Shown: piece by piece, positions 3,272 through 48,848 of the stretch | How the letters are laid out: each line of letters opens with the position of its first letter | How positions within the stretch are numbered: the first letter of the stretch is position 1 | Sequence record: PZ347661.1 | From: a phage | Length of the DNA: 64,000 nucleotides | Reading direction: 5' to 3' (one strand) | Program-made: the position numbers and the translations under genes | Notes under the pieces: model-generated | Database searches by the model: none | What the model saw: only the letters and a program-made list of their open reading frames with translations | What the model was told of the DNA's origin: nothing

Positions 3272-3624
3272 AACTAATCGTAGCTGGTGGAAGAGACTTC
3301 GTAGATACCAATCGTATGATTGAGGAATTACAGAAGTTAGTAAATTCAGGGAATATACCTGAATGCCCAGAATTAGTATGTGGCATGGCTCGTGGAGCAG
3401 ATATATTAGCTTTCCGTCTATGGAAATCTGCAAATATGCAGATACATGTATTCCCTGCTGAATGGGATACCTATGGCAAGTCTGCTGGATTCCGTAGGAA
3501 TAAAGAAATGGGTGAATTTGCAGATGCTGCTGTATGTTTCTGGGATGGTAAATCCAAAGGAACCAAGCACATGATTGATATCATGAATAGGCTTAATAAA
3601 CCTGTATACGTTGTGAGGTACTAA
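3268..3624 (+). CDS. Rossmann-like SLOG/DUF2493-like protein (118 aa)
   Basis: LIVAGGRDF ... CGMARGADILA pattern resembles LOG/DprA-type nucleotide-binding folds; family assignment is an inference. Confidence 0.5.
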   Translation: MKLIVAGGRDFVDTNRMIEELQKLVNSGNIPECPELVCGMARGADILAFRLWKSANMQIHVFPAEWDTYGKSAGFRRNKEMGEFADAAVCFWDGKSKGTKHMIDIMNRLNKPVYVVRY

Positions 3625-3882
3625 ATGATTATTACATATCCTACAGGCAAGAACGTAGATTATATGGGACATACTATCCAAGTACCACATTGGGTTAAGT
3701 ATATAGCTTTATATACTCGGCAATATAAAAGTGCTAATACCTCATTAATAGGATTCTCTAAGAAACCTAAGCTAACAGAAAACAATATCTGGGTATCCTC
3801 TGGGAGACAAGAAGAGATTGGTTTTTGTGATTTGAGTATTATCGATAATAACGTTTACCTAACGCTGGAGAAAGTAGCATGA
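3625..3882 (+). CDS. hypothetical protein (85 aa)
   Basis: ORF in tight operon. Confidence 0.45.
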   Translation: MIITYPTGKNVDYMGHTIQVPHWVKYIALYTRQYKSANTSLIGFSKKPKLTENNIWVSSGRQEEIGFCDLSIIDNNVYLTLEKVA

Positions 3883-4070
3883 ATATTGAAAATTATGAAA
3901 TCACTTTAGTAACAGCAGATAGTAAAACTGTGATTAAAAAACAATTAAATAATGACCCCGAGATGCTTAACTGGGTTGCAGAGCAATTTGCTGATGTTAA
4001 CTCAGCACAGGTAACCATACGGAATATGTCAGGAAAAGTAGTAGCATTTACAGGCAAGGAGCCAGTATGA
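3879..4070 (+). CDS. hypothetical protein (63 aa)
   Basis: ORF, start overlaps previous stop. Confidence 0.45.
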   Translation: MNIENYEITLVTADSKTVIKKQLNNDPEMLNWVAEQFADVNSAQVTIRNMSGKVVAFTGKEPV

Positions 4071-4381
4071 AAACTATTTTAGTAGTCCATGATTCTACAT
4101 TTACTGATGTAGATAAGATGATGCGTAATATTGATTATGTATCTCAGACAAGCCAAGCATTCAATGAAGAGTTTACTCTGTACTGTAATGCTGAATCACC
4201 ACTGGTTCCTATCCTTAAGGAATCAGGTCTACCATTCTCTACAGAGAACTTCCCGGAAGAACCGGACTATGTAATCTCATTTATCTATGACTTACATGAT
4301 GGTTCTGAAACCAGTGAATTAGCTATGAACCAGTGGCGTAGTAAACGTCCTGTGTTCGCATTTCAGGTACTTAAGCCATGA
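4067..4381 (+). CDS. hypothetical acidic protein (104 aa)
   Basis: ORF, ATGA overlap coupling. Confidence 0.5.
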   Translation: MKTILVVHDSTFTDVDKMMRNIDYVSQTSQAFNEEFTLYCNAESPLVPILKESGLPFSTENFPEEPDYVISFIYDLHDGSETSELAMNQWRSKRPVFAFQVLKP

Positions 4382-4620
4382 TATATGAAGAATATTACGT
4401 ATTTAAAAAAGGAGATGAGTTTATAGCCATGCCTGATGATTACATTGATTGGCATACAACTCCAGTATTAAGCGAAGCATTTTCCGTACCTAACCTAGAA
4501 GAGGTTAATAAAGTAATGAACGGGGTAATGTTAACTAGAGGACTAGCTTATAAAATAGACGCATTAGAAGGAACTACTGTATGTAAAGTAGTTACATCTA
4601 TTGAGGTACTTAAACCATGA
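4378..4620 (+). CDS. hypothetical protein (80 aa)
   Basis: ORF, overlap coupling. Confidence 0.5.
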   Translation: MIYEEYYVFKKGDEFIAMPDDYIDWHTTPVLSEAFSVPNLEEVNKVMNGVMLTRGLAYKIDALEGTTVCKVVTSIEVLKP

Positions 4621-5876: not shown

Positions 5877-5891
5877 AGCTGCTCCGCAGCT
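5877..5891 (+). promoter_or_regulatory. Hairpin promoter candidate of the N4 virion-RNAP type (stem AGCTGC/GCAGCT, loop TCC, then TTTGG)
   Basis: Perfect 6-bp inverted repeat with TCC loop, immediately upstream of the RNAP II genes. Confidence 0.55.
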
Positions 5892-5924
5892 TTTGGTTAT
5901 TAATCATATTTAGGAGAATAAGCG

Positions 5925-6743
5925 ATGTACTCATCTATTGAACATCAGAAGCAACTTGAAATCCTTTTCAACAAGAATCAATTACTCCCTCGCATGAGGA
6001 AGGAATTCGAGGACTCCGAAGAAATTGACTTTAAGGCATTTGCTGCCTATTTAGAAATTGATTATAAGCTGCTCATTGATGCAATGGTGCAGATTGCCCT
6101 ACATAAACGTGCTGACATTCAGACTATGATTGGCTCTCTCATGAGTCACTCAGATGATGCTCAGTACATCGCTGACTGTCTGTATAAGATGGCAGAGAAT
6201 GACTGCTTCAACTATGACCCTACCATCGACAAGTTCGGTGTTATCTATGAGATTAGTGAAGATGTTCAGATGGAACTGGAAGCATTCCAGTATCCTTTGC
6301 CTATCGTAAGTGCTCCTAAGCCTGTTAAGTGTAACCGTGATACTGGTTACTACGAAAGCAGAGGTAGCATCATCCTCAAGAAGAACCATCATGAGATGGA
6401 TGTCTGTCTTGATCACATCAACCGCATGAATAACCAACGTCTCTGCATTAACTGGGACGTTGCTAACTATGTAAAAGACTCTCGTCCTAATATGGATAAA
6501 CCTAAAGAGGGTGAAACCCGTCAGGACTATGAGAAACGTGTCAAAGCCTTTGAGAAGTACAGCCGTACAGCTAAGGAAGTAATGGAGTTAGTGACCAAGG
6601 AAGGTAATAACTTCTCTCTGGCTCACAAATATGACAAACGTGGGCGTACATATGCCTGTGGCTACCACATCAACTATCAGGGAACCAGTTACAACAAAGC
6701 TGTTCTGGAGTTCGCTGATAAGGAGCTAGTAAACAATGATTAA
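5925..6743 (+). CDS. phage RNA polymerase II small subunit (N4 gp15-like, 272 aa)
   Basis: Size and position match the N4 two-subunit RNAP II (recalled sizes 269 and 404 aa); adjacent to the large subunit, which carries polymerase motifs. Confidence 0.65.
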   Translation: MYSSIEHQKQLEILFNKNQLLPRMRKEFEDSEEIDFKAFAAYLEIDYKLLIDAMVQIALHKRADIQTMIGSLMSHSDDAQYIADCLYKMAENDCFNYDPTIDKFGVIYEISEDVQMELEAFQYPLPIVSAPKPVKCNRDTGYYESRGSIILKKNHHEMDVCLDHINRMNNQRLCINWDVANYVKDSRPNMDKPKEGETRQDYEKRVKAFEKYSRTAKEVMELVTKEGNNFSLAHKYDKRGRTYACGYHINYQGTSYNKAVLEFADKELVNND

Positions 6744-6846
6744 TCATCGTGCAGTAGCTGACTTCTACGCTCACAGAGAACTAGTGTTAAAACGTATTAA
6801 CGAAGCTCTCAAACGTGAGGCAGAGGCCAAACGTAAACGTAAATAA
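6736..6846 (+). CDS. hypothetical small basic protein (36 aa) between the RNAP II subunit genes
   Basis: ATG with AGGAGC RBS; very short, speculative. Confidence 0.25.
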   Translation: MINHRAVADFYAHRELVLKRINEALKREAEAKRKRK

Positions 6847-6900
6847 ATCCAATAAGCAGGCTCTCCATAGTGGGGAGCCAAGAAGCAAAAGGAACATAAA

Positions 6901-8118
6901 ATGCAACTGTTAACCGCTAAAGAATACCTGAAAGTAGATATCGCCAATAACTATGGCTTAGATAAGAAGACATGGGATGAACGTATTGCCTGGTTCGATG
7001 AGAACGAAGCTAACCTGCTTAATCTGGTAGATGAAGCTGAAGATTCTGCTCTGTTCTTTGCAGGTGTAAATGCATGGAAAGACATGAAAGCTGGTAAACC
7101 TATCGGTTATGCCGTAGCTCTGGATGCTACATCATCTGGCTTACAGTTACTGGCTTGCCTGACTGGTGACCGTTCTGCTGCTGAACTGTGTAACGTAGTT
7201 AACTATATGGGTGAGAATGGTAAACCCTTACGTCGTGATGCTTATACAGTTATCTATCACAAGATGCTGGACATCCTTGGTGAAGCATCACGTATTAAAC
7301 GTAGTGACACTAAGCAGGCAGTTATGACTGCATTCTACGGTTCAGAAGCCAAGCCTAAAGAAGTATTCGGTGAAGGTATTCGTCTCAAGACTTTTGAGAA
7401 TGTAATGGAAACTGTTGCTAGTGGTCCTTGGGCACTTAACAAGTTCTTACTGCAATGTGGTAATCCTGATGCTAACCGTTACGTATGGGTACTTCCTGAC
7501 AACTTCCATGCTGTCATTAAGGTCATGGTTCCAGAAGTACAGACTGTTAACTTCTTAGGTAAACCATTCGACATCACTCGTATGGTTCAGGGTACTGAAG
7601 AGAAGACTCGTATGCTCTCTGCTAACATTACCCACTCTATTGATGGGATGGTAGTACGTGAGATGCTGCGTCGTTGTAACTTCGACCCTAAACTGGTTGC
7701 CTATGTACGTGAACTATGTGATATCGGGCCAAGCAATTATCCTGCTATCGAAGGGAACCTGGAAATGACTATGGAAATTTGGAATCATTATGAGAAGTCT
7801 GGGTTCCTGTCACTATCTATTCTGGACTACCTTGACCCGAATACCATTGCATTGGTAGACCGTCAGGTAATAGCAGATATGATTGACACTCTGCCTAAGA
7901 AACCATTCCCTGTAATGACTGTACATGACTGCTTCCGTTGTCATCCTAACTACGGTAATGACCTGCGTCGTCAGTACAATCAGATTCTGTCTGATATTGC
8001 TAAGAGTGACCTACTGGGCTTCATCTTGTCTCAGGTACTAGGACAAGAGTTCTCCGCTGGTAAGCTGGATGACAGCCTCTGGCAGGACATTCTTGAAACA
8101 GACTATGCATTAAGTTAA
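6901..8118 (+). CDS. phage RNA polymerase II large subunit (N4 gp16-like, 405 aa)
   Basis: KQAVMTAFYGS resembles motif B and TVHDCF motif C of T7-like single-subunit RNAPs; size matches N4. Confidence 0.8.
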   Translation: MQLLTAKEYLKVDIANNYGLDKKTWDERIAWFDENEANLLNLVDEAEDSALFFAGVNAWKDMKAGKPIGYAVALDATSSGLQLLACLTGDRSAAELCNVVNYMGENGKPLRRDAYTVIYHKMLDILGEASRIKRSDTKQAVMTAFYGSEAKPKEVFGEGIRLKTFENVMETVASGPWALNKFLLQCGNPDANRYVWVLPDNFHAVIKVMVPEVQTVNFLGKPFDITRMVQGTEEKTRMLSANITHSIDGMVVREMLRRCNFDPKLVAYVRELCDIGPSNYPAIEGNLEMTMEIWNHYEKSGFLSLSILDYLDPNTIALVDRQVIADMIDTLPKKPFPVMTVHDCFRCHPNYGNDLRRQYNQILSDIAKSDLLGFILSQVLGQEFSAGKLDDSLWQDILETDYALS

Positions 8119-8125
8119 TAAACTA

Positions 8126-8159
8126 GCCTCATTCCTTCGGGAGTGAGGCATATTTTTTG
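8126..8159 (+). terminator. intrinsic terminator (10-bp stem with TTCG loop, T tract)
   Basis: GCCTCATTCC-TTCG-GGAGTGAGGC followed by ATATTTTTT. Confidence 0.65.
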
Positions 8160-8175
8160 CTTGGAGGTAATAACT

Positions 8176-8358
8176 ATGCTAATCCCTTTTGAAGTAATCT
8201 CTCAGCTAATACTGATAGTTTTATCTGTACTGGTTCTGTCTACAATAGTTCATGCCCACAAATCTAAGTTTGCTTGCTACTGTTATGGAGCATACTCGCT
8301 AGGCTGCTTTGTAATGGCAGGATGGATAGCTTTTGCTGTCTACTGTGTAAACAACTAA
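8176..8358 (+). CDS. small membrane protein (60 aa)
   Basis: ATG with GGAGG RBS; two hydrophobic segments. Confidence 0.4.
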   Translation: MLIPFEVISQLILIVLSVLVLSTIVHAHKSKFACYCYGAYSLGCFVMAGWIAFAVYCVNN

Positions 8359-8386
8359 CCCTCTTAACGGAGGGTTTTTATTTTTA
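8357..8386 (+). terminator. intrinsic terminator
   Basis: AACCCTC stem, GAGGGTT partner, TTTTATTTTT tail. Confidence 0.6.
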
Positions 8387-38012: not shown

Positions 38013-41000
38013 TTAGTTAGTGAGGTTGAGCCAAGGGTTCAGGTTATGAGCACGTAAGCCTTGACCGAAACCGAAGGAGTAACCAAGGTTGCCTTGTGCA
38101 GCAATGCTAAAGATGTTGTCCTGAATAGGCAGGCCAACGTTACCAAACATAGTAGGAGTTGGAGCCAGCATAGCCATAGCAGCATGTACAGGGTTGTTAC
38201 GAATCATGGACACTGCAACTTTTGCGGAACGAATCTTAAAGTTGTAGAACCACATAAGACCAACGCTTTCCATATAACCACGGAAGCGTCCTGGCAAACG
38301 GTCATAGTTAATGAACTCTTCCGTCACACGTCCAAGTGCTTCTTCACGGGTTTTACCTTTACGCTTAGTCAGTTCATCATAGATGATCGCTTTAGCAATA
38401 AAGTCAGAGTACTCAACCGTCTTCTGGATACCCTGGAAGAGAGCAGTATCCTTAGTGATAAGTGCATAACGACCTGCATTGCGTACAGACTTAGGCAGCT
38501 TATCAGCCAGCTTATCCATGTATTCGTGGAGTTTGCCCTCAGTAATCAGGATGTCATCACGTCCAATACCAGCATCTGCAATTGAGGAGAACTCACCTGC
38601 TTCTAGCAGAGGCCAGATACTCAAACGCTTATGACTATCCGTGATGGACTGAATCTCAGCTTTCAACTTACGAATCTGGTTCGGGTTAGTAGCTGCACGT
38701 AATTCTGCTTCTGCATCTACCTGACGTAAACGAGATTTCAGATACTGGTTAATCTCAGCAGTCTTCTGTGGAATGCTCTTAGCAATGTTCTTAACGGGTA
38801 CACCACGAGCAACCATCTGATAAAGGTTAGCCAGGAAGTTAACAGCAGGTACGACTACTGACTTAACTACAATCAGAGTCTTAGCTTCTTTAACTAAGTT
38901 TTGAACCAGGTTCTCACCACCCATTACATACTTGTAGGCACGGTTGCCGAATACACCCAACATAGCCTTCTTGAAGGTATCCAGCGTTTCTGGGGACCAA
39001 CGAGAATTACCAGACCAGGCATCACCAACGGAAGCTGCACGATAACCAAGAGCATCATTAAGCATGTCACGACGTACCCACAGCTCACCTGGGCCAAACA
39101 GACTTTCTGCTTTCTGACGTGTTTCACTGTTCATCAGTTTAAGAGCATCGGCAGTTACTGGGTCCAGTTTAGAACCAAGAAGGTTAACGTACTGAGACTT
39201 ATTAGAAGCAGACATCTTAATGTCGTTCTCATACATGCTATACAGATTCTCAATTAGCATATCGTTGAAACGCTGGGCCTTGGCCTCTTCTACCTGACGA
39301 CCACGCCATACACCAATTGCACGAGCAAGATGGTTCTCACCCTCAATGTGCTTCAGCATGTTAGGGTCAATGGATTGCTCATAAGCAACCACATTACCAT
39401 TGGCATCATATACAGGCAGAAGTGGTTCATTACCTCGTTCACCACGAGCCAGTGCTTTGGTGATACGGTCCACGGAAGGCTTGTCAGTAATACGACCTGC
39501 TACCATGGTTCCCATCGTAAAGCCTGTACCAAGGTCTACACCACCAGCAGTATTACGAACGTTCTGTAAGATACCCTGTGAGAATGGAGCCTGTGACTGT
39601 ACTGGTGCAAAGTAGTAGCTACGTGCTGGACCACGATTAGCAGAGCTACCCTGATAAGTACCCAGACGTACATAAGACTTCTCAATCAAATCAGCAAATT
39701 GATTATCTTCAGCAACAATCAGGTTAACACCTTGTTTGTTCTCACCAGGGATATACCCTTTGTACTGGTTCAAGGTTGCACGCGAATCAGACTTGGCTTT
39801 AGCCATTTCATCCTTACGTTGACCAACCAGGTAAGAAGTAGCAAAGTCCATACCTTCAATTTCTGTCTGAGCCAGTAAAGATAACATCTCACGGTCAGAT
39901 TTATTCATTGCTTCCAGTGCATACAGGGTAATGAGTTTATCCAGTTGAGCTACATCAACAACAGAGCGTGTAGTCTTACGCTCACCCAGCAAGCGTGAAA
40001 TTGCAGTAGCATTACGCAACAAGTTATTTCCGACTGTACCATTAATCATGTACTGAGCCAGTTGCTTAGATTTACGGCTAATCAGATGCCAGTTACGTCC
40101 TGCTTGTTTCTGCAAATCTGCTTCCAGTTTATTAACCTCACGGTCAACAATCTTCTGGTCAGACAACAGGTCACGAATTTCAGCCAGAGACATAGTGTCA
40201 CGCAGGACAGCTAAGTCAGTTTTACCCATACCGGTATGCATTGCTTTCCACTCAACATTAGTCAGCTTACGGCTGAACTTAGATGCGATAGTGGTAGGCA
40301 GGTGTTCACGGAACTGTTGACGGTCAGCCTGTACCTGTGCACGTACTGCTTTAATCAAATCATATACAGAAGCATTACTCTTAGTACGACCGATTATGTC
40401 ATTAACCAGGTCATGGAACGGTTGCCATACTTTACCCTGGTTCATTGCAGCCATAACACCTTCAGCTACGATTGAACCATTCTTCTCTGTAGCAATAGCA
40501 GCTACCAGTTGTGCAGCATGAGCAGCACCTTTAACCAATGGGTTCTTGGTATTAGCTGCAACTTCACGAGCACCTTCCAAAGCACGGGTAGACAGTACAT
40601 CAATAGAATCCACCAGATACTGGTTAGCACGGTCAATAGCATTACCGGTAGGAGTAGCAACGGAATCATAGAAGGACTCTGCATTAAGACTGGTCTGCAT
40701 AATTGTCTGAGCTAGTGCATCCATACCTTCTTGTACGTTAGTGGCTTTAGTATCGCCTGCTACACGGGCATTCAGACTAGCCATTGCAGCAGTACCGATG
40801 TTAGTCAGCATTGCATCAACAGTATTGCCTGACTTCTTATCTGCTTTCATAACAGGAATATCAGCCAGTACTTTACGTACCTCTTCACTTACCATTGCCA
40901 GACCAACAAAGGTAGGCAGCAAGGAAGAACGACCCTGTGCATCAAACTCAATGTTGTTAGCACCCATGATGGTATCGAACTTCTGCTGTGCATAGTAACG

Positions 41001-44000
41001 GTCAGCAGGGTTAGTACTATCTGGGTCAGCCATGAACGATTCAACAGTTAGGTTCTTAGTAACGTGTGTGTAGTATTCCTGTGCACGAGCCATGGCAGCT
41101 GGGTTAATAGCAGCCTCGGTAGCCAGTGCAGCAACAATGTTAGTGAAGAGACGCTGTTCCTGCATATTCATGGTGAAGCCATGAGCCTGAACATCACGAG
41201 TTACTTTAGTTGCATTCACTACTGCATCAGAGAACTTACCTTTACGAATTACTTGCTGTACTGGTTCTGAACCAATGTAGTCAGTAATCAGTTTATCGAA
41301 GGTTTTTCCTAACTCTTCCAGACGAGTATTGTTACCGTATGCTTTGTTATGGAACAGGGTAGTGTCCTTAGCTACAGCAGCAGTAGGAGCCTGTCCACGC
41401 ATAACTACAGCAGAGTTAAACAGTAAGCCAGAGAACATATCATCTGCATTAGACGGAGCTTTCTTACGTCCAAATACCAGGCGTTTGATTGCTTCATATA
41501 CAGCCTGAGCCATAGCTTTAAGTGCAGTGGTTTTCTTCTGCTTACCAATCAGTTCACGGTTAGTTAAGCCCCAAGCCATGTACTCATTCAATGCAGCAGC
41601 TTTAGCCATTGCTGGTTCAATGAAGCCATTGGACAAGTGACCATTAATGGTATTCAGTGCATCAGCATATGCTTCACGTACTACCGGAGATTCATCCTTA
41701 ACATCCAGAGTACGGAATTGGTTCATCAGGTCTTCAATATTCTGGACAGCTTCATTAGGAGTACCCTCATAGTGAGCCAGTACAGATTCAAAAGTAGAGG
41801 CATGTACTAATTCATGAACCAGAGTCTCTAAGGAAGGGGTAACTAAGTAGATGGTCTTATCTTCAAAGTTAGTCCAGCCATATGCATTACCAGCTTCAGC
41901 AGCTTCAATATCTTCCGGTGCAGGGCGAGTAATATTCTTCTCAATAGCGTAGGCATCCAGTTGAGAAGGTGTACCGTAAACAACCTTATAGTCTTTAGCA
42001 GCAAGAGATTTCTGTATTTCTTTCAATACTGCTTGCTGTTCAGGAGACATCTCTTTAGCCAGCTTAGTGATAGCAGTATTAGACAGCAGACGTACACCAG
42101 ACTTCAGTACACGACCTACCTTCTCCATAGCTGGTACAACTTTCACCGGCACTTCCTTCACTGGTTCTGCCTTCGTTGGTTCCGCTTTAGCAGCACGTAC
42201 TGCTTCACGACGCTTGTTTAGTTCAGCATCAAACAGCTCGTTCAGCTTAGCTACTTGCTGGTCTACAGTCAGACCTTCCAGAGAGATTTTACCGTTGTTC
42301 ACATAAGGAGCACCTACAGCAGCCATCTGGTCAACAGTGACCTGTACCTGGTCCATTACCTTGTGACGAATATCTACACCCAAAGCAATGTTACGCAGGT
42401 TACGCTCAATCAGTGCAATACCAGAATCTCTAATCATAGAAATTTTATAATCTCTATCACCATCTACTCTGGCAATATGAGCACGTTGCTCAAAGTCTAA
42501 AGCAGACTTTGCAATAGCATCTATTGCTGAATCGGACAGCTTATTTAAATCAACATTCTTAACAAACTTAGAGAAAGACTCATATACATTCTTGATAGGG
42601 TTACCCTGCCAGGAAGTATATACAGCCTCATTAGCTTTACGGCTTGCATCAGTAATGTCATTAATACCAATGTTCATACCATCAAAGATTTTCAGGGTAT
42701 TCTTCGGAGCACCTTTCATAGTAGAAAGAGTCTGCATCATCATGCCATCACCAGTACCGATGGTCATAAATGGAATACCTGCAACACCTGCTTGCGAAGG
42801 AGCATAGATGCTCATTGGCACACGCATACGGTCATCTAAGTTGGTGGCCAGTACTTGGTTAGCAACATCAGTGTTTTCACTACCAGCAATGTAGAAAGTC
42901 TGTGAGCCAGTCTTAATCATTGGAGCCAGTGGTGCTAAGCTATTCTGGATTTCATTCAGTTCTTTCTGTGTTAAGAAATCGCCTTTTTTCCATGTTGGGT
43001 CTTTTTCTTTTTCTGCCAGCTTAGCCTGTACTGCCTGTTGGAACATATCCTGCAATACCAGAGATTGTATCTGAGTAGCCTTCTGCAAGTTCTCAGTAGA
43101 GTGCATCAACCCTTCACCAACAGTAAATCGGATACCTTGTCTCATTGGCTCAACAAAGAAATGCAGCATATTCTCTTGTAAGTTCTTCAGAGCATCCCCG
43201 GATACGGTAAACTCCTGAGGATTTAACTCACCAGTCAGAACACCATCTACTTCCTTAATAAATAACCTACCTTTGCGTTTGGCTGGAATCTTGCCAGTCA
43301 ATGCTTCCATAGAAGTAAGGAAGGTATCCAGCATAGCCTGAGCATCAGCTTCAGAAGCAGCCTCCTTACCAAACATCGCCATAGCTGGGGAAATGCTAGG
43401 GTCAGCAGCACGGGCTTTTAGAACGTCGCTTAAGCGTTCATAGATGGCGTCAGTAATTGCACTTACCATCTTGCCTGCAATACCGCGAGCACCAGAACCA
43501 TAAATGGTAATAGTCAGTGGGTTTTTAGCGATACCACGCTTCAGGTCCAGAGTACCATCTTCATTAAGATTGAAGTCTTTGATGAACAGGTCCATTAACT
43601 TCTGGAGATGGTCCATCTGATTTATAATAGGAATATTTTTGCTGTAAGTATTGCGTAGTTCATTCAGATGGAATTGCAGACTATTGGTAGATGCTTCATA
43701 CAGGTCAACATTATCATCCTGAGTATGATGCTCATTCATAGTCTTACCGGCTTTACCGAAGAACAAACCACCTTTAGCAGTATTCTTAATCCAGTTTGGG
43801 GTGAACTTACCACCAGTCATTAATACCATTGCGTTGATTGGCCCGTTGGTTACACCATCGGCTTCAACGTACAGTGGGGTATTAAAGTTGGCTCGGTCAT
43901 CACTGTTAAGGTAACGGGCATATTCCATAAGAGCCATGAGAGCTACAAATGATTTATCATTACCCAGAGATGTTCTCAGGATATCCACTGCGTCAGCAGG

Positions 44001-47000
44001 CAAGTATCCAGACTTATCAAACTCAACCATCATATCTACAGCAGGCTTCAGTTTACCTTCCAGAGCCTTGGTAAGTTCTTCTGACATAGTTTCACGAGTC
44101 ATTTTATGAACTTTGATACCCAATGCCTGAGCCAGACCTAACTGGAAGCCAGAGAAGTCTTCATTGTTTTGGTTCGATAAATCCAGAGTAGCTTTAGTAG
44201 GTAAGATAGCCTCACGAACCAGCTTAGCTGATTGAGGATTGTATTTGCCCAACATCTGCATACGACCAACACGGGTCATATTGTAAGCATAGTGAATAGG
44301 TACAGAAGAAATGTCTTCACTCTGTGCTCTCACCTGTTCAATAACAGAGAACAGTTGGTTGTAAGAATCTTCTACAGAACGATTCTTACCTTCCAGAGAT
44401 TTAGCATGGTTCTTATTAAGTAAATCCTTATCCAGAGTACCTGCACCCATCAGTTCAAGGATACGGTCTTTACCTAATGCTTCATAGAACTGAACCATTG
44501 GAGTATGTACAAAGAACTCAGTAGCCTGTTCTGCTTTAAGAGCAGCTTTCTGTTCTGGAGTATTACGGACAGCAGGGTTACGTAACTGAGTAGGAGCCAC
44601 TGAAGGAATATCATCACCCAGGTACAATTTCTCTTCTGGTTCTACGAGGACAGCTTCCTCGATAGCAGTAGGGAATTTGTTAATGGCATCGTTATCATCC
44701 AGTTTCTCAATGGTATACAGACCAATAGTCTTATTAGATTCTGGGTCAATTTCAGACACATCAAGCATAGACTCTTTAACTTCACCCATCTCAATGAGAG
44801 AAGACAGAATCTCTGTAGCCATTGCCATTGGAATACCTTTGGTATAACCCAATGGTGCATCAGCATTACGATTAAGTCCCCAATAAGATTCAATCTTTTG
44901 AGCCAGTGAGTTAGTAGCTTCTACTAAGGTTTGTGCATTCTCAAATTCTGCGAGGATGCCCTCTGGTAACAAGGAAGCATTTACACCAGTAATTGCAGCC
45001 ACATCCTGCATGTCTTTAATAGCAGCATTCTGTGTAGCAGTAAGTCGCCATTGCAGACCAGCAAGTACAGCAGTCTCTAATAACTGGTCATTGAACTTAA
45101 AGGTATCACCATCTTTCTCTACGATGTTAAGCAGTTTGCCACCTACCCAACGGTTAGCCTCAGTACCCTCTGCAAAACGTTTACCAACATTCTTGTTAGC
45201 AAGGAACTTAGCCAGACGATCAGACAGAGTAGTCTTCAGAGTTTCACCAAAATCAAATAAGTCCTGGTAACGCTTAATCACATCACTTGTGAGAGCGTTA
45301 TTTTCTCTTTGAGTGAATGCTTCAAAACGAGCAGCAGAAGACAATGCTTTCTTAACATCAGTCAAAGGAGATTCAGAACCAATGGTACGAGACTTAGGTT
45401 CTTCTGGAAGAGAAAATGCTTTAAGGAACTGGTTCGGTGTCTTGTCGTTGTTATAGACAGGGAACACTGTTTCTATTCCCGATAGAGGTTTACCGCCAAC
45501 GGTATAGTCTGCTTTCAGTTGAGCCAGTGATACTTCTTCCTTCTCGACGTTATTGGTATTAAGCCCAGATGTATCTACACCAATCTGAATCAGTGCATTG
45601 TTTGCTTCTACGAATGATTGAACAGTATTAAATTGTTCCGGGGTCAGCTTCTGGTTATCAAACAGTTGCAAAGATACAAATGGTTGTTCACTACCTTTGT
45701 AGAAGGTAGAGCGAATAGCACCAGTATCTAAAGACATATCACGATAACCATCATGACCAAATACATCAGACAGACTGATATGGTCACCATTAGAACCAAC
45801 AACAGTACCATCAGCAAAGAGCCATGGACTTTCCCTACGGTCACCATACTTATTAAGAGTATCTTGTGAAATAGTATTCTCTTTCACATAAGAATCTCTT
45901 TCAGATTCAGTAGGCTGTTCAACGGTATCCTGTTTTTCAGACTGGTTCTCAGGTTCTTTTACAGTCTGTGGTTTAGACTCTTTATTAGTAGGTTCTGTTT
46001 TAACAGCTTCACTAACAGAGGGTTTAGTCTGTACAGTAGGGGTAACTGGTTCCTGTTTCGTAACAGGAGTTTCATCAACCTGATTCACTGGTTCATTGGT
46101 CTGTTGGGATTGAGCAGCATCAAGATTGCCCTGACGGAACTCTTTAACTACCTGGGCAGCAGGCTTGTCCAGACGTGAATCCAATGGGGTAACTTTCACA
46201 TGAGAAACATTAAGCTCCGGGTAAGCCGTAGCAAGTGCGTTAGCAATATCAGCTACGGTCTTGGCTTCCAGTCCTACTTGCTGGGCAAACTTAACAGACT
46301 TGGTATCATACGGATTGACACCGAGGCCAGTACGACTACGTACCCATTCACGCGAGGGAGTAAGAGCCTGATAATGGACAGACTTATTCTTATCCGCATT
46401 CCCAGAAATCAGATGCTCATTCAACGCTCCGACCTTATTCTGCATGTGCTGGGCGAACTTCATAAAGTCGTCGAGATAAGCGGAAGCCAAATCGAAGTTA
46501 CCAGAGTTGTACGCAGAACGAATGCGTTTAGCATGTTGCAACGCAGAGTACTGGCCTTCATTAGAACGAGATTCGTCGGTTTTAATTTGTTTACTAACAA
46601 TGTCTTGAGGACGTAAGCCTAGTTCTTCTGCTTTAGCGTCAAATTCTCGTGCTCCTTGCAATAGAGCAGCAGCAGATTGCAGGGCAGCACGCTGACGATT
46701 CCCCAGTGTAATCTTACCTTCACTCGCATGTTTCAGAACCATGTTCACTGAATCTGCATCCAGTACTTCTGGAGACACATCAGCAGCCATAGCAATATTG
46801 TTTGCCTGGGCTTGGTTAGCTTCTTCAGTAGCTTTCAGTTTACCTGCTTCAGCCTGTTCCTGAATCATGGAATGAATGGCACGGAATGCACGGAGTACTT
46901 TCGGTGTATTCTGAACATTAGCCATCAGGCCGGAGAACTGGTCAACGATATTAGCAGCAGGAGAACCCTGTTCCAGATTAGCTAATGCACCTGGGTCACG

Positions 47001-48848
47001 GTTAATGAAGCTATCCATAGACATGATGTTGTCATACATCTGGATTGCAGCTTCCATTTGAACGTTAGGGTCTTCAGCAGTATTAACCAGGTCAGCCATC
47101 TTCTGAATAGCTTCAACACGGTTAGTGGAACCAGAAACAGCTTCACGGATTGCAGGACTAGCTTGTTCCAGTTCTACTGGGTCAAACTTCATTGCCTGAG
47201 TTAAGTCAGCAGCATACTGAGTAGCAGCAGCTTTCTCTTCAGGAGAAATATCCATTGCATCTACTGCTTCCTGAACAGTTGCTTGTGCTTGTTCTGCCTG
47301 AGCAGTAGCTTCCTGTGCAGCAGCGTTAACTGTAGCATCTGATACAGGGGATGCTTGTTCATTACGCTTAGCAACTTCTTCTCCACGTTGAACCAGAATG
47401 TTAGTAATAGGTGAAGCTACTTTTGCTAATGCCTTACCAGCCAGAGAAGCACCAGCCAAGGTAGTACGTACAGCAGGACCAACGGCAGCACCAGCAGCCT
47501 TAACAGTTGCACCAGGAGCTTGAGCAACTCCAGCAGAACCGAAGCCGTACAGTGCACCCAGACCTGCTTGCTCACCAACACCTTTGAGGATGTCACGAGA
47601 TGCATCAACATTACCTTGGATTGCCTTGTTCTGTGCAAACTGACTTGTACCAGACTGGATACCTTCTTCTACAGTCTCACGCAGCATGTTGGAACCAGCA
47701 CCAGCCAGTGAACCTACCTTAAGTGGATTAAGTTCAAACTTGGATACCAATGGAGCAGTAAGAGCAGCAACTGGAGCAGTTAAACCAGCAGCAGTGATAC
47801 CTGTTTCAGATGCAGTCTGACGTCGTGCCTCTTCAGGAGTTAAGCCGTCTTTAATGTGTTGTTGGTATACAGGAGATTTAGCAGCCAGTTCACTGAATGG
47901 CATTTCCATAATTTCATTGGCAGTCTGTTGATATGCACCACCAGCTTCCATACCACCAATTGCTATAGCAGGTGCAGCAATACGACCAGCAGTCTGTGCA
48001 ATCCGTGCAGGACGTGAACCTAACTCAGCAGCTAAGGTAATACCCTTAACAGCTTTGTCCCCACCTACCATTACTTTACCAAGTGCGGATACACCACGGA
48101 TAAGTGGACCACCAGTGAAGAGAGAACCAACGCCTTCAGCCAGACCATCTGTAGCAGCCATGCCATTGGACAAGGTATTAGCAACAGAATCATAAGCATC
48201 CCGACCAATTCGAGACAGAGAAGCAACGAGTTCACTTTCTCCTTTAGCAATATCCTGCTTATAGAGTTTCTCATTTTCCTGTGCAGATATTACGTTCTGG
48301 TTCTGTACTACATTACGACGAGCATTCAGTGCATCAGACTGTAGGTTGTGTACACCTTTATTCAACCAGTCAAGACCGGAAGCAATGGATGCCCCGGCAT
48401 TATCATTGACCAAGCCTGTGCCAAGAGCAGCAATGCCCCCAAGGGTATTAGCAACACCAAGACCAACACCAGAAAGGGTATCACCAAGTGCTTCACCATA
48501 TGTGCGACTCTTAGTTAAATCACGACGAACAGCATTAGCTGCATTGACACGAGCATTGAGAATGTCCATTCCTTGCTCATTGCCATACTTGTTTACGATT
48601 TCAAGAGGGGAGGCATTAGTAAAATCTGCCTGAATAGAACCTGGGTCAAATGCACCAGCACCTAAGTCACCGGCACGTCCTGCCTGTAATTGGTAAGCGT
48701 TCTGAGAAGTTAATTGGAAAGGGTTTTGCCCTTGTTCAGCTTGTTTCCGAGAGGTTGCAGTAGAGACATCGACTTGCTTAGCAGTAGTGATGCTGTCTGC
48801 GAAACCTGCCAGACGGTCAAATGTTGACATAGCATGATTCCTGTTCAA
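38013..48848 (-). CDS. virion-encapsidated RNA polymerase (N4 gp50-like vRNAP, 3611 aa)
   Basis: Single giant ORF at the late-region position where N4 encodes its ~3500-aa vRNAP; internal KNPLTITIYGSGARG resembles motif B of T7-like single-subunit RNAPs. Confidence 0.85.
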   Translation of the reverse strand: MNRNHAMSTFDRLAGFADSITTAKQVDVSTATSRKQAEQGQNPFQLTSQNAYQLQAGRAGDLGAGAFDPGSIQADFTNASPLEIVNKYGNEQGMDILNARVNAANAVRRDLTKSRTYGEALGDTLSGVGLGVANTLGGIAALGTGLVNDNAGASIASGLDWLNKGVHNLQSDALNARRNVVQNQNVISAQENEKLYKQDIAKGESELVASLSRIGRDAYDSVANTLSNGMAATDGLAEGVGSLFTGGPLIRGVSALGKVMVGGDKAVKGITLAAELGSRPARIAQTAGRIAAPAIAIGGMEAGGAYQQTANEIMEMPFSELAAKSPVYQQHIKDGLTPEEARRQTASETGITAAGLTAPVAALTAPLVSKFELNPLKVGSLAGAGSNMLRETVEEGIQSGTSQFAQNKAIQGNVDASRDILKGVGEQAGLGALYGFGSAGVAQAPGATVKAAGAAVGPAVRTTLAGASLAGKALAKVASPITNILVQRGEEVAKRNEQASPVSDATVNAAAQEATAQAEQAQATVQEAVDAMDISPEEKAAATQYAADLTQAMKFDPVELEQASPAIREAVSGSTNRVEAIQKMADLVNTAEDPNVQMEAAIQMYDNIMSMDSFINRDPGALANLEQGSPAANIVDQFSGLMANVQNTPKVLRAFRAIHSMIQEQAEAGKLKATEEANQAQANNIAMAADVSPEVLDADSVNMVLKHASEGKITLGNRQRAALQSAAALLQGAREFDAKAEELGLRPQDIVSKQIKTDESRSNEGQYSALQHAKRIRSAYNSGNFDLASAYLDDFMKFAQHMQNKVGALNEHLISGNADKNKSVHYQALTPSREWVRSRTGLGVNPYDTKSVKFAQQVGLEAKTVADIANALATAYPELNVSHVKVTPLDSRLDKPAAQVVKEFRQGNLDAAQSQQTNEPVNQVDETPVTKQEPVTPTVQTKPSVSEAVKTEPTNKESKPQTVKEPENQSEKQDTVEQPTESERDSYVKENTISQDTLNKYGDRRESPWLFADGTVVGSNGDHISLSDVFGHDGYRDMSLDTGAIRSTFYKGSEQPFVSLQLFDNQKLTPEQFNTVQSFVEANNALIQIGVDTSGLNTNNVEKEEVSLAQLKADYTVGGKPLSGIETVFPVYNNDKTPNQFLKAFSLPEEPKSRTIGSESPLTDVKKALSSAARFEAFTQRENNALTSDVIKRYQDLFDFGETLKTTLSDRLAKFLANKNVGKRFAEGTEANRWVGGKLLNIVEKDGDTFKFNDQLLETAVLAGLQWRLTATQNAAIKDMQDVAAITGVNASLLPEGILAEFENAQTLVEATNSLAQKIESYWGLNRNADAPLGYTKGIPMAMATEILSSLIEMGEVKESMLDVSEIDPESNKTIGLYTIEKLDDNDAINKFPTAIEEAVLVEPEEKLYLGDDIPSVAPTQLRNPAVRNTPEQKAALKAEQATEFFVHTPMVQFYEALGKDRILELMGAGTLDKDLLNKNHAKSLEGKNRSVEDSYNQLFSVIEQVRAQSEDISSVPIHYAYNMTRVGRMQMLGKYNPQSAKLVREAILPTKATLDLSNQNNEDFSGFQLGLAQALGIKVHKMTRETMSEELTKALEGKLKPAVDMMVEFDKSGYLPADAVDILRTSLGNDKSFVALMALMEYARYLNSDDRANFNTPLYVEADGVTNGPINAMVLMTGGKFTPNWIKNTAKGGLFFGKAGKTMNEHHTQDDNVDLYEASTNSLQFHLNELRNTYSKNIPIINQMDHLQKLMDLFIKDFNLNEDGTLDLKRGIAKNPLTITIYGSGARGIAGKMVSAITDAIYERLSDVLKARAADPSISPAMAMFGKEAASEADAQAMLDTFLTSMEALTGKIPAKRKGRLFIKEVDGVLTGELNPQEFTVSGDALKNLQENMLHFFVEPMRQGIRFTVGEGLMHSTENLQKATQIQSLVLQDMFQQAVQAKLAEKEKDPTWKKGDFLTQKELNEIQNSLAPLAPMIKTGSQTFYIAGSENTDVANQVLATNLDDRMRVPMSIYAPSQAGVAGIPFMTIGTGDGMMMQTLSTMKGAPKNTLKIFDGMNIGINDITDASRKANEAVYTSWQGNPIKNVYESFSKFVKNVDLNKLSDSAIDAIAKSALDFEQRAHIARVDGDRDYKISMIRDSGIALIERNLRNIALGVDIRHKVMDQVQVTVDQMAAVGAPYVNNGKISLEGLTVDQQVAKLNELFDAELNKRREAVRAAKAEPTKAEPVKEVPVKVVPAMEKVGRVLKSGVRLLSNTAITKLAKEMSPEQQAVLKEIQKSLAAKDYKVVYGTPSQLDAYAIEKNITRPAPEDIEAAEAGNAYGWTNFEDKTIYLVTPSLETLVHELVHASTFESVLAHYEGTPNEAVQNIEDLMNQFRTLDVKDESPVVREAYADALNTINGHLSNGFIEPAMAKAAALNEYMAWGLTNRELIGKQKKTTALKAMAQAVYEAIKRLVFGRKKAPSNADDMFSGLLFNSAVVMRGQAPTAAVAKDTTLFHNKAYGNNTRLEELGKTFDKLITDYIGSEPVQQVIRKGKFSDAVVNATKVTRDVQAHGFTMNMQEQRLFTNIVAALATEAAINPAAMARAQEYYTHVTKNLTVESFMADPDSTNPADRYYAQQKFDTIMGANNIEFDAQGRSSLLPTFVGLAMVSEEVRKVLADIPVMKADKKSGNTVDAMLTNIGTAAMASLNARVAGDTKATNVQEGMDALAQTIMQTSLNAESFYDSVATPTGNAIDRANQYLVDSIDVLSTRALEGAREVAANTKNPLVKGAAHAAQLVAAIATEKNGSIVAEGVMAAMNQGKVWQPFHDLVNDIIGRTKSNASVYDLIKAVRAQVQADRQQFREHLPTTIASKFSRKLTNVEWKAMHTGMGKTDLAVLRDTMSLAEIRDLLSDQKIVDREVNKLEADLQKQAGRNWHLISRKSKQLAQYMINGTVGNNLLRNATAISRLLGERKTTRSVVDVAQLDKLITLYALEAMNKSDREMLSLLAQTEIEGMDFATSYLVGQRKDEMAKAKSDSRATLNQYKGYIPGENKQGVNLIVAEDNQFADLIEKSYVRLGTYQGSSANRGPARSYYFAPVQSQAPFSQGILQNVRNTAGGVDLGTGFTMGTMVAGRITDKPSVDRITKALARGERGNEPLLPVYDANGNVVAYEQSIDPNMLKHIEGENHLARAIGVWRGRQVEEAKAQRFNDMLIENLYSMYENDIKMSASNKSQYVNLLGSKLDPVTADALKLMNSETRQKAESLFGPGELWVRRDMLNDALGYRAASVGDAWSGNSRWSPETLDTFKKAMLGVFGNRAYKYVMGGENLVQNLVKEAKTLIVVKSVVVPAVNFLANLYQMVARGVPVKNIAKSIPQKTAEINQYLKSRLRQVDAEAELRAATNPNQIRKLKAEIQSITDSHKRLSIWPLLEAGEFSSIADAGIGRDDILITEGKLHEYMDKLADKLPKSVRNAGRYALITKDTALFQGIQKTVEYSDFIAKAIIYDELTKRKGKTREEALGRVTEEFINYDRLPGRFRGYMESVGLMWFYNFKIRSAKVAVSMIRNNPVHAAMAMLAPTPTMFGNVGLPIQDNIFSIAAQGNLGYSFGFGQGLRAHNLNPWLNLTN

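Follow-up and report, generated by a model that had tools for sequence, protein, structure and literature searches.

A probable 36-codon accessory gene between the RNA polymerase II subunit genes of a G7C-like coliphage

By sequence homology, positions 5925–8118 of the phage DNA analysed here contain the genes of a two-subunit N4-type RNA polymerase II (RNAPII) heterodimer, an enzyme of an already known type, with an open reading frame of 36 codons between them. The DNA is a stretch of 64,000 nucleotides (PZ347661.1), referred to in full as the window. We consider it likely that this region is the early RNAPII operon of a G7C-like coliphage, and that the 36-codon ORF is a real but dispensable early accessory gene, carried in a cassette slot and not encoding a third subunit of the polymerase.

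Results

Organisation of the RNAPII unit

The window was 92–94% identical in DNA sequence to Gamaleyavirus genomes, and is a Gamaleyavirus, a G7C/N4-like coliphage of the Schitoviridae. Its genome type is that of N4: it contains homologues of N4 gp1 and gp2 (66% identity to the N4 proteins) and a giant virion RNA polymerase, an ORF of 3611 aa matching phrog_2206, 'virion RNA polymerase', with 4110 bits. N4 and the window also share the same hairpin element upstream of gp15 and a terminator downstream. The features of the unit are listed below.

5877–5896, + strand: hairpin resembling an early promoter of the virion RNA polymerase, AGCTGC-TCC-GCAGCT followed by TTTGG (similarity to N4)
5925–6743, + strand: orthologue of gp15, RNAPII small subunit (N4 gp15/RNAP1), 272 aa (ORF list; PDB and PHROG matches)
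6720–6725, + strand: Shine–Dalgarno sequence AAGGAG of the 36-codon ORF, inside the last gp15 codons and 10 nt before the ATG of the ORF
6736–6846, + strand: 36-codon ORF ('cassette A'), 36 aa, MINHRAVADFYAHRELVLKRINEALKREAEAKRKRK (ORF list; frame-specific selection)
6859–6879, + strand: conserved hairpin GGCTCTCCA-TAG-TGGGGAGCC, downstream of the cassette slot and ahead of the ribosome-binding site of gp16
6889–6893, + strand: Shine–Dalgarno sequence AAGGA of gp16, 7 nt before the gp16 ATG (read from the sequence; conserved in relatives)
6901–8118, + strand: orthologue of gp16, RNAPII large catalytic subunit (N4 gp16/RNAP2), 405 aa (PDB, Pfam and PHROG matches)
8126–8159, + strand: hairpin and T-run resembling an intrinsic terminator, at the end of the gp15–ORF–gp16 unit; 10-bp stem with 6 G-C pairs, then ATATTTTTTG

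The coordinates given in an earlier note on this DNA for the two genes, the small ORF and the 157-nt spacer (6744–6900) were all correct when compared with the ORF list and the sequence.

The subunit genes and the position of the split

Over their whole length, the two proteins aligned with N4 RNAP1 and RNAP2 from the crystal structures (6DT7/6DT8/6DTA). The 272-aa protein matched PDB 6DT7_A over residues 3–269 (E 1.1e-117) and phrog_2166, 'N4-like RNA polymerase' (E 2.7e-117); the 405-aa protein matched 6DT7_B over residues 1–405 (E 2.4e-189) and phrog_2051 (E 5e-175). Identity to the N4 proteins over their full length was 65% for gp15 and 68% for gp16, in agreement with the earlier proposal that these products are the subunits of N4 RNAPII. 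A lack of RNAP homology in profile searches, named in the earlier note as a finding that would count against the proposal, was not what we saw: besides the two PHROG matches, PF00940 was found in gp16 with 53 bits against a gathering threshold of 22, although over profile positions 8–170 only. A Pfam search of gp15 gave no match.

Alignment with T7 RNAP, the means proposed earlier for locating the split, paired gp15 residues 210–264 with T7 residues 388–447 and gp16 residues 9–157 with T7 residues 459–612. The chain break therefore falls at about T7 residue 455, within the palm, and the subunits match an N-terminal and a C-terminal part of the single-chain enzyme that do not overlap. Both RNAPII proteins matched phrog_414, at positions 227–424 and 427–596 respectively. 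The gp15 protein comprises the N-terminal and thumb parts and carries the DxxGR motif as D237-KRGR (D237–R241). Motif B (R134SDTK138QAVMTAFY146GS; R134, K138, Y146) and motif C (VH342D343CF; H342, D343) had been assigned to the 405-aa protein, and they are indeed there. That assignment can be refined, as motif A (ALD75ATSSG) is in gp16 too, and gp15 adds only N-terminal and thumb parts and DxxGR. With D75 also in the large subunit, all the catalytic carboxylates and the O-helix residues are in gp16 alone. The same distribution of motifs across the two RNAPII chains has been published for N4 (PMC4496689).

The fold family and catalytic motifs of gp15/gp16 are those of T7 RNAP and the other single-subunit RNAPs (PF00940), but the chain is broken near residue 455, and the N-terminal domain and thumb are truncated. 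The N4 enzyme also differs from T7 RNAP in requiring the cofactors gp1 and gp2; it is inactive alone. LUZ7 Drc is reportedly a small early cofactor comparable to N4 gp2. The need of N4-like RNAPII for small early cofactors is documented, and N4 RNAPII has been purified as a two-chain enzyme (PMC4496689) and crystallised as a heterodimer (PDB 6DT7). It is encoded by two adjacent early genes of 269 and 404 aa, compared with 272 and 405 aa here. According to the N4 literature, the reason why the N4-like RNAPII is split into two genes is unresolved (PMC4496689).

Predicted transcription signals and the hairpin before gp16

The hairpin at 5877–5896 is nearly identical to N4 4548–4575, which lies directly upstream of N4 gp15, and its form is that of N4 P2, at N4 564. 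Its core, GCTCCGC, starts at 5881 and occurs at just three further sites in the window (90, 760 and 1020), all of them on the + strand in the early region. On the template strand the hairpin presents -11G, -10G, -9C and -8G, equal to the P2 oligonucleotide and to the contacts described in PMC13492108 and PMC4496689. By its similarity to N4 only, we infer that this hairpin is a virion-RNAP promoter, with a predicted transcription start at G5895, 30 nt before the gp15 ATG. A simple scan flagged 5877–5891 as a terminator; a promoter is preferred, as the hairpin agrees with the consensus of N4 P2-type promoters and with the sequence that precedes gp15 in N4. At the other end of the unit, SP5M and Jura have an annotated terminator at the place equivalent to 8126–8159.

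The hairpin at 6859–6879 occurs once in the window and has a fold energy of -16.3 kcal/mol (z = -2.6). Every slot variant has it, with a compensatory change from C-G to T-A in PBM-3 but single mismatches at the same pair in AN24P2 and L020. UE-S5a, L016 and L017 have another hairpin at this place, GAGCC-AAAT/AGTA-GGCTC, and N4 has AGCC-AATA-GGCT, from which the stem in the window differs and which it exceeds in length. The hairpin was rejected as a virion-RNAP promoter (a purine is required at the centre of the template-strand loop but T is found there, and the stem has 9 bp) and as an intrinsic terminator (there is no T-run on either strand). A role in RNA processing, in RNA stability or in translational control can be no more than guessed at.

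Evidence for coding in the 36-codon ORF

The ATG of the 36-codon ORF overlaps the gp15 stop codon (ATGATTAA). This overlap suggests translational coupling, and because of it the ORF is probably translated by coupling to gp15. Every genome with the ORF has kept its Shine–Dalgarno sequence, either as AAGGAG or as AAGGAA. The encoded peptide, of 4.4 kDa, is basic, with a pI of 10.6 and a net charge of about +5.7; with the AAGGAG at 6720–6725, this confirms its earlier description as a basic ORF preceded by a ribosome-binding site. AlphaFold2 modelled a helix over residues 4–35 (pLDDT 91.9), so that the peptide is predicted to be one basic amphipathic helix.

Selection was measured by comparing the ORF with its homologues in CU10EC, E20/F22 and one IMG/VR contig. 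The differences were mainly at the third codon position, for example 4/1/16 by position. In the ORF frame pN was 0.05–0.07 and pS 0.6–0.8, with dN/dS about 0.04 where it could be computed. The +1 frame gave 0.7–1.9; the +2 frame had zero synonymous changes and hence no ratio. An identical 36-aa peptide is encoded in six metagenome contigs, each differing from the window by 1–6 nt, and all 20 differences summed over the six are silent. Further homologues were sought with a degenerate DNA pattern on IMG/VR, which gave one locus, and by exact-sequence look-up, which found the peptide indexed in 110 blocks of the assembly collection; a phmmer search of the full library with the peptide returned two representative clusters only. 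The homologues are 35–38 aa long and always at the gp15/gp16 position. One of 35 aa with 68% identity is at this position in a phage whose RNAPII is 85–88% identical. Judged by this coding selection, what had earlier been listed as a possible ORF is very probably a translated gene.

No family was found for the peptide in Pfam or PHROGs, nor did either contain an HNH, GIY-YIG, endonuclease VII or other nuclease or DNA-binding domain match to it; a Pfam match to FAM165 (E 0.54) was dismissed as noise. A literature search on the slot polymorphism and the 36-codon ORF yielded nothing specific, and a proteomics paper on UE phage (PMC11927229) does not mention the peptide. The earlier statement that the ORF is missing from the ORF track holds for that track, but the records of vB_EcoP_CU10EC (PQ435408), E20 (OP745616) and vB_Eco_F22 (OP870143) list it as a 36- or 38-aa hypothetical protein.

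Variable contents of the gp15/gp16 junction

CU10EC, E20 and F22 have the same order of gp15, small ORF and gp16 as the window, and the same ATGATTAA overlap. E20 and F22 carry an additional ORF of 80 aa (phrog_5444) after the small ORF, which the window does not. Their small ORF is 76% identical to that of the window in DNA sequence and 91% identical over 22 BLAST-aligned residues; tblastn aligned residues 1–22 of the peptide only, since the KREAEAKRKRK tail was masked by the low-complexity filter.

Other relatives have other contents at this place. The 157-nt spacer of the window, with its 36-codon gene, contrasts with spacers of 47 nt in N4 and 56 nt in EC1-UPM that hold no ORF. Among GenBank phage records, counted with RefSeq/GenBank duplicates included, the slot held a 53-aa ORF in 24, a 79-aa ORF in 14, an HNH gene in 4 and the 36–38-aa ORF in 3. 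The cargo in related phages consists of unrelated ORFs of 53 or 79–80 aa, an HNH_3/AP2 endonuclease gene or an endonuclease VII-like gene of phrog_1035, and relatives with RNAPII genes about 93% identical carry different cargo at the same place. In the window the slot contains the small ORF only, without an endonuclease. In relatives, the unrelated slot ORFs likewise overlap or directly adjoin the stop codon of gp15; coupling thus seems to come with the slot and not with the peptide.

HNH endonucleases were found at the junction in two genera, Gamaleyavirus and Enquatrovirus, and in one relative a group-I-intron-like insert with an endonuclease gene lies inside gp16 motif B. One of the phages with an HNH gene is UE-S5a. 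Wherever the 36-codon ORF occurs, the last gp15 codons are present in a version particular to it. In L016 an HNH gene and the small ORF are found together at the junction: the HNH gene arrived with a foreign gp15 3′ end, and the ORF-linked end was left as a relic of 71 nt. The insertion seems to have happened about 70 nt further upstream, within gp15 and outside the ORF. Free-standing endonuclease genes between or inside conserved genes are familiar from T4-like phages as intron-less homing, or 'genes in pieces'. Like free-standing homing endonucleases, the HNH_3/AP2 and endonuclease VII-like genes of the relatives of the window sit exactly at the gp15/gp16 junction, although they are known from sequence and their homing is putative. 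The spacer between the subunit genes is most likely a polymorphic cassette and a homing hotspot, as judged from these comparisons.

Discussion

In the pathway that we propose, the injected virion RNAP probably initiates at the hairpin promoter at 5877–5896 and would transcribe gp15, the 36-codon ORF and gp16, stopping at 8126–8159. Coupled to gp15, translation of the ORF would give a highly basic peptide of a single helix. The gp15 protein, with the N-terminal and thumb parts and DxxGR, and the gp16 protein, with palm, fingers and motifs A, B and C, would form a heterodimeric T7-like RNAPII for the middle genes; homology is what we see here, and assembly and activity are taken over from the biochemistry and crystal structures of the N4 enzyme.

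The 36-aa peptide is probably not a subunit of RNAPII, because the spacers of N4 and EC1-UPM are empty. Across the family the ORF does not co-occur with gp15 and gp16, being absent from N4, EC1-UPM and most Gamaleyaviruses. The peptide might still serve RNAPII as an optional regulator or third component, produced in step with gp15 through coupling and docking by its basic helix either on single-stranded template DNA or on the heterodimer, much as N4 gp2 or LUZ7 Drc act as small early cofactors. Such a role would suit a gene that lies between the subunit genes, overlaps the gp15 stop codon with its start, is under strong purifying selection and encodes a basic amphipathic helix, in a family of polymerases with known small early cofactors (PMC4496689). 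Against this, the ORF is missing from most Gamaleyaviruses even though their RNAPII is 92–94% identical in DNA, the overlap with the gp15 stop is shared by unrelated slot ORFs, and the N4 enzyme works, and has been crystallised, as a heterodimer. We regard this role as quite unlikely.

It is very improbable that the ORF is non-functional, whether a chance ORF of the spacer or the decaying relic of an insert such as a homing endonuclease. The ORF is very short and belongs to no Pfam or PHROG family, and the slot often gains and loses inserts, with relics such as the 71-nt gp15 3′ end in L016. However, a dN/dS of about 0.04 in frame compared with 0.7–1.9 in the +1 frame, 20 silent differences out of 20 over six contigs, a length that holds at 35–38 aa down to 68% identity, and the conserved Shine–Dalgarno sequence and ATG all argue for function. 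The particular idea that it derives from a decayed HNH or endonuclease VII gene was rejected, the peptide having no similarity to that cargo, a stable length and strong selection. We give equally little credence to a tie between the ORF and homing-endonuclease traffic, by which it would alter or protect the target or would travel as a passenger by co-conversion with the RNAPII flank. The HNH genes at the same junction in two genera, the constant linkage of the ORF to its own last gp15 codons, and the replacement of the ORF-linked gp15 end in L016 are all consistent with such a tie. Yet L016 carries the ORF together with an HNH gene, which shows that the ORF was no barrier to invasion; the insertion seems to have taken place within gp15, outside the ORF; and the peptide has no detectable nuclease or DNA-binding domain.

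We still favour the reading of a cassette slot that holds a dispensable gene for an early accessory protein. This places the peptide in a class and does not give a mechanism; most likely it is something like a host-takeover factor, or a small modulator that binds nucleic acids or proteins. Its coupling to gp15, its basic helix and its place within the RNAPII operon also fit an optional RNAPII modulator.

For the polymerase itself the window adds nothing new, only one further orthologue of an enzyme whose biochemistry and structure have been described. The 36-codon ORF, treated inconsistently by gene callers and annotators, merits annotation and is a candidate small early effector. A broader proposal, which we consider unlikely, is that the gp15/gp16 junction is an active landing site for homing-endonuclease genes and small-gene cassettes across the Enquatrovirinae, and that insertions there split an ancestral single-chain polymerase or keep it split. 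If this were true, insertions at the junction would answer why the N4-like RNAPII is heterodimeric, and the 36-aa basic helix, brought in by the cassette, might modulate the polymerase instead of being a passenger that has nothing to do with it. The polymorphism of the spacer offers a concrete and testable angle on the two-gene N4-like RNAPII.

RNA polymerase II subunits

The region matched 63 phage records, nearly all of them Escherichia or Shigella Gamaleyavirus, with the top matches 92–94% identical. By sequence, the genome is of the Gamaleyavirus type (G7C-like, Schitoviridae, Enquatrovirinae). The relevant genes are:

143-454: homologue of the N4 early protein gp1, 66% identity to N4
1074-1544: homologue of the N4 early protein gp2, 66% identity to N4
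5925-6743, + strand: gp15 gene, 272-aa ORF
6736-6846, + strand: 36-codon ORF
6901-8118, + strand: gp16 gene, 405-aa ORF
38013-48848, - strand: 3611-aa ORF, PHROG family 'virion RNA polymerase', 4110 bits

The ORF list and the sequence agree exactly with the coordinates in the earlier note for the 272-aa, 405-aa and 36-codon ORFs and for the 157-nt spacer between gp15 and gp16. That note had also taken the two larger products for the subunits of N4 RNA polymerase II (RNAPII), and database comparison bears this out. The 272-aa protein matched PDB 6DT7 chain A (N4 RNAP1) end to end with 65% identity (E 1.1e-117), the 405-aa protein matched chain B (N4 RNAP2) end to end with 68% identity (E 2.4e-189), and profile searches of PHROGs and Pfam, which detected RNAP homology, concurred. 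The N4 enzyme, to which the window subunits are this closely related, works as a two-chain enzyme.

The alignment with T7 RNAP proposed earlier maps the split to about T7 residue 455, where the final gp15 residue falls in a three-way alignment. Residues 210-264 of gp15 align to T7 388-447, with gp15 D237-KRGR opposite T7 D421-WRGR, and gp16 residues 9-157 align to T7 459-612. The catalytic motifs were found as follows:

Motif A: gp16 ALD75ATSSG
Motif B: gp16 R134SDTK138QAVMTAFY146GS
Motif C: gp16 VH342D343CF

Motifs B and C are thus in the larger protein, as had been claimed, with one correction to that reading: motif A (D75) is there too, so that all three motifs lie in the large subunit. What gp15 contributes is the DxxGR motif together with the N-terminal and thumb portions. 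The same distribution of motifs between the N4 subunits is given in a review of N4 (PMC4496689), which, like later papers, cites the RNAPII structures. The polymerase half of the finding is therefore correct, and already known.

Two relatives are annotated differently. The pSb-1 gp16 gene (L004 3041-4257) is annotated as two overlapping CDSs of 264 and 151 aa, and the K57alpha1.2 record (L015) gives the RNAPII region the label 'virion RNA polymerase' and places it on the other strand; both probably reflect annotation or sequence problems.

Evidence for a small gene between gp15 and gp16

The 36-codon ORF was described earlier as basic and preceded by a ribosome-binding site, and both features are present. 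Its ATG overlaps the gp15 stop codon (ATGATTAA). The ORF encodes MINHRAVADFYAHRELVLKRINEALKREAEAKRKRK, a peptide with pI 10.6 and a net charge near +5.7. The upstream signal and the homologues are:

6720-6725, + strand: Shine-Dalgarno AAGGAG, 10 nt 5′ of the ATG
CU10EC: 36 aa, 93% DNA identity
E20 and F22: 38 aa, 76% DNA identity (91% amino-acid identity over the 22 residues aligned by tblastn)
L016, an IMG/VR contig: 38 aa
1.84-billion-protein library: two representative clusters, 38 aa at 86% and 35 aa at 68% identity

The 35-aa homologue occupies the same location in a phage with RNAPII subunits 88% and 85% identical to those of the window. Over the 32 collinear codons to which comparison was restricted, the window and E20 differ at 4, 1 and 16 first, second and third positions respectively, and third positions therefore dominate. 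In the ORF frame pN was 0.05-0.07 and pS 0.6-0.8, with dN/dS about 0.04 where computable; the +1 frame gave 0.7-1.9, and the +2 frame had zero synonymous changes and hence no ratio. A look-up of the exact 36-aa sequence found it in 110 indexed blocks of an assembly collection. At all six places read, the ORF lies between a 272-aa gene and the gp16 gene, with 1-6 base differences from the window each, all silent; gp16 is 405 aa in four of these contigs, 417 aa as called in a fifth, and interrupted in the sixth, the Logan metagenomic contig L019. AlphaFold2 predicted a single helix (residues 4-35, pLDDT 91.9), and no family match to the peptide was found in Pfam or PHROGs. Three GenBank records of relatives already annotate the ORF as a hypothetical protein. 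From the homologues, the third-position bias with low dN/dS and the silent-only variation, we conclude that the ORF is a real, uncharacterised small gene, very probably translated.

A putative early transcription unit

Hairpins and terminator-like sites around the operon are:

84-105, 755-775, 1015-1035 and 5877-5896, + strand: stem-TCC-stem with a GCTCCGC core, a T-rich stretch and GG
5877-5896, + strand: AGCTGC-TCC-GCAGCT, then TTTGG, 34 nt upstream of gp15
6859-6879: conserved hairpin, 9-bp stem and 3-nt loop, between the spacer ORF and the gp16 ribosome-binding site
8126-8159, + strand: strong intrinsic terminator-like site 3′ of gp16

The window has just four copies of the GCTCCGC core (90, 760, 1020 and 5881), all on the + strand. 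Three of the four sites lie just 5′ of the gp1, gp2 and gp15 homologues, and the fourth (760) is 5′ of another early ORF. A near-identical hairpin sequence stands directly 5′ of N4 gp15 (N4 4548-4575), and N4 564 has GAAGC-TCC-GCTTC-TTTTGG, complementary to the P2 hairpin oligonucleotide of cryo-EM work on N4 virion RNA polymerase (vRNAP; PMC13492108). Given these matches, all four are probably vRNAP early promoters. The template strand of 5877-5896 carries -11G, -10G, -9C and -8G, the bases contacted by vRNAP (PMC4496689), and the predicted transcription start is G5895. A simple scan scored this site as terminator-like; given the P2-type match and the contact bases, we instead infer an early promoter driven by vRNAP. 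Together with the terminator-like site, it would place the 36-codon ORF within a compact early transcription unit, in which a vRNAP-driven transcript from G5895 would span gp15, the small ORF and gp16 and end at 8126-8159.

A 71-aa hydrophobic ORF follows the terminator (8143-8358; a 60-aa version is annotated as gp16.1 in relatives), and a second hairpin at 8357-8376, terminator-like on both strands, closes this region (8143-8376). A 46-aa ORF is annotated over the gp16 end in CU10EC (L001 3802-3942) and IME11 (L011 2812-2952); the window lacks a counterpart, which makes the sequence just 3′ of gp16 variable as well.

The spacer is a polymorphic cassette slot

The spacers of N4 (47 nt) and EC1-UPM (56 nt) contain no ORF. 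Other close relatives carry:

53-aa ORF (phrog_15352): St11Ph5, SP5M and others
79-80-aa ORF (phrog_5444): PBM-3, AN24P2
53-aa and 79-aa ORFs: IME11, 24-32N
38-aa and 80-aa ORFs: E20, F22
168-aa HNH_3/AP2 endonuclease: UE-S5a, UE-M3, UE-M6, and Enquatrovirus Jura (71% identity)
204-aa endonuclease VII-like protein: pSb-1

Counted as GenBank phage records, RefSeq/GenBank duplicates included, the 36-38-aa ORF occurs in 3, the 53-aa ORF in 24, the 79-aa ORF in 14 and the HNH gene in 4. Among relatives (L001-L015, L025) the spacer is bordered by two conserved flanks, the final gp15 codons and ATCCAATAAGCAGG. The gp15/gp16 spacer is thus a polymorphic cassette slot. Every cargo gene overlaps or abuts the gp15 stop codon and has its own Shine-Dalgarno site within the last gp15 codons, so translational coupling to gp15 appears to be a property of the slot.

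The counterpart of hairpin 6859-6879 in PBM-3 has T-A in place of one C-G pair, a compensatory change; in AN24P2 and L020 this pair carries single mismatches. At this position N4, UE-S5a, L016 and L017 have another, shorter hairpin (GAGCC-loop-GGCTC).

The peptide could be imagined as a further RNAPII subunit, encoded as it is between the other two. This is unlikely, since the two-chain enzyme works in N4, the peptide is missing from N4 and EC1-UPM, and relatives about 93% identical in DNA lack it, with other cargo in the slot. The most economical reading of the small ORF is an early accessory gene that the phage can do without.

Endonuclease genes at the junction

In L016 (UViG_3300006879_000003), the HNH gene and the 38-aa ORF are separated by a 71-nt remnant of the gp15 3′ end (1931-2007). 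It is identical to the window gp15 end at 65 of 71 positions, translates to NHNQGTSYNKAVLEFADKELVNDD* and still provides the ribosome-binding site and ATG of the 38-aa ORF, while the functional gp15 3′ end, located 5′ of the HNH gene, has diverged in sequence. These two gene ends indicate that the endonuclease cassette arrived with its own replacement gp15 3′ end, as expected in intron-less homing, and that it apparently entered about 70 nt short of the gp15 stop codon.

In L019 (SRR7533035_2573), one of the contigs with the identical 36-aa peptide, the break in gp16 lies between V141 and M142, within motif B (KQAV/MTAFYGS). The insert of about 800 nt (3589-4395) contains an endonuclease VII-like ORF (3696-4256) and gave a full-length Rfam Intron_gpI match (36.8 bits, E 1.7e-7) below the gathering threshold; the likely explanation is a group I intron within the catalytic-subunit gene. 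A 158-aa HNH_3/AP2 ORF (1692-2168) directly 5′ of the gp15 homologue gives this phage a second endonuclease beside the RNAPII operon.

The observations on L016 and L019 leave the verdict on the window unchanged. The N4 review treats the reason for the split of N4-like RNAPII as open (PMC4496689), and the cassette arrival in L016 and the motif B insert in L019 make the gp15/gp16 junction a plausible place for studying why the polymerase is split.
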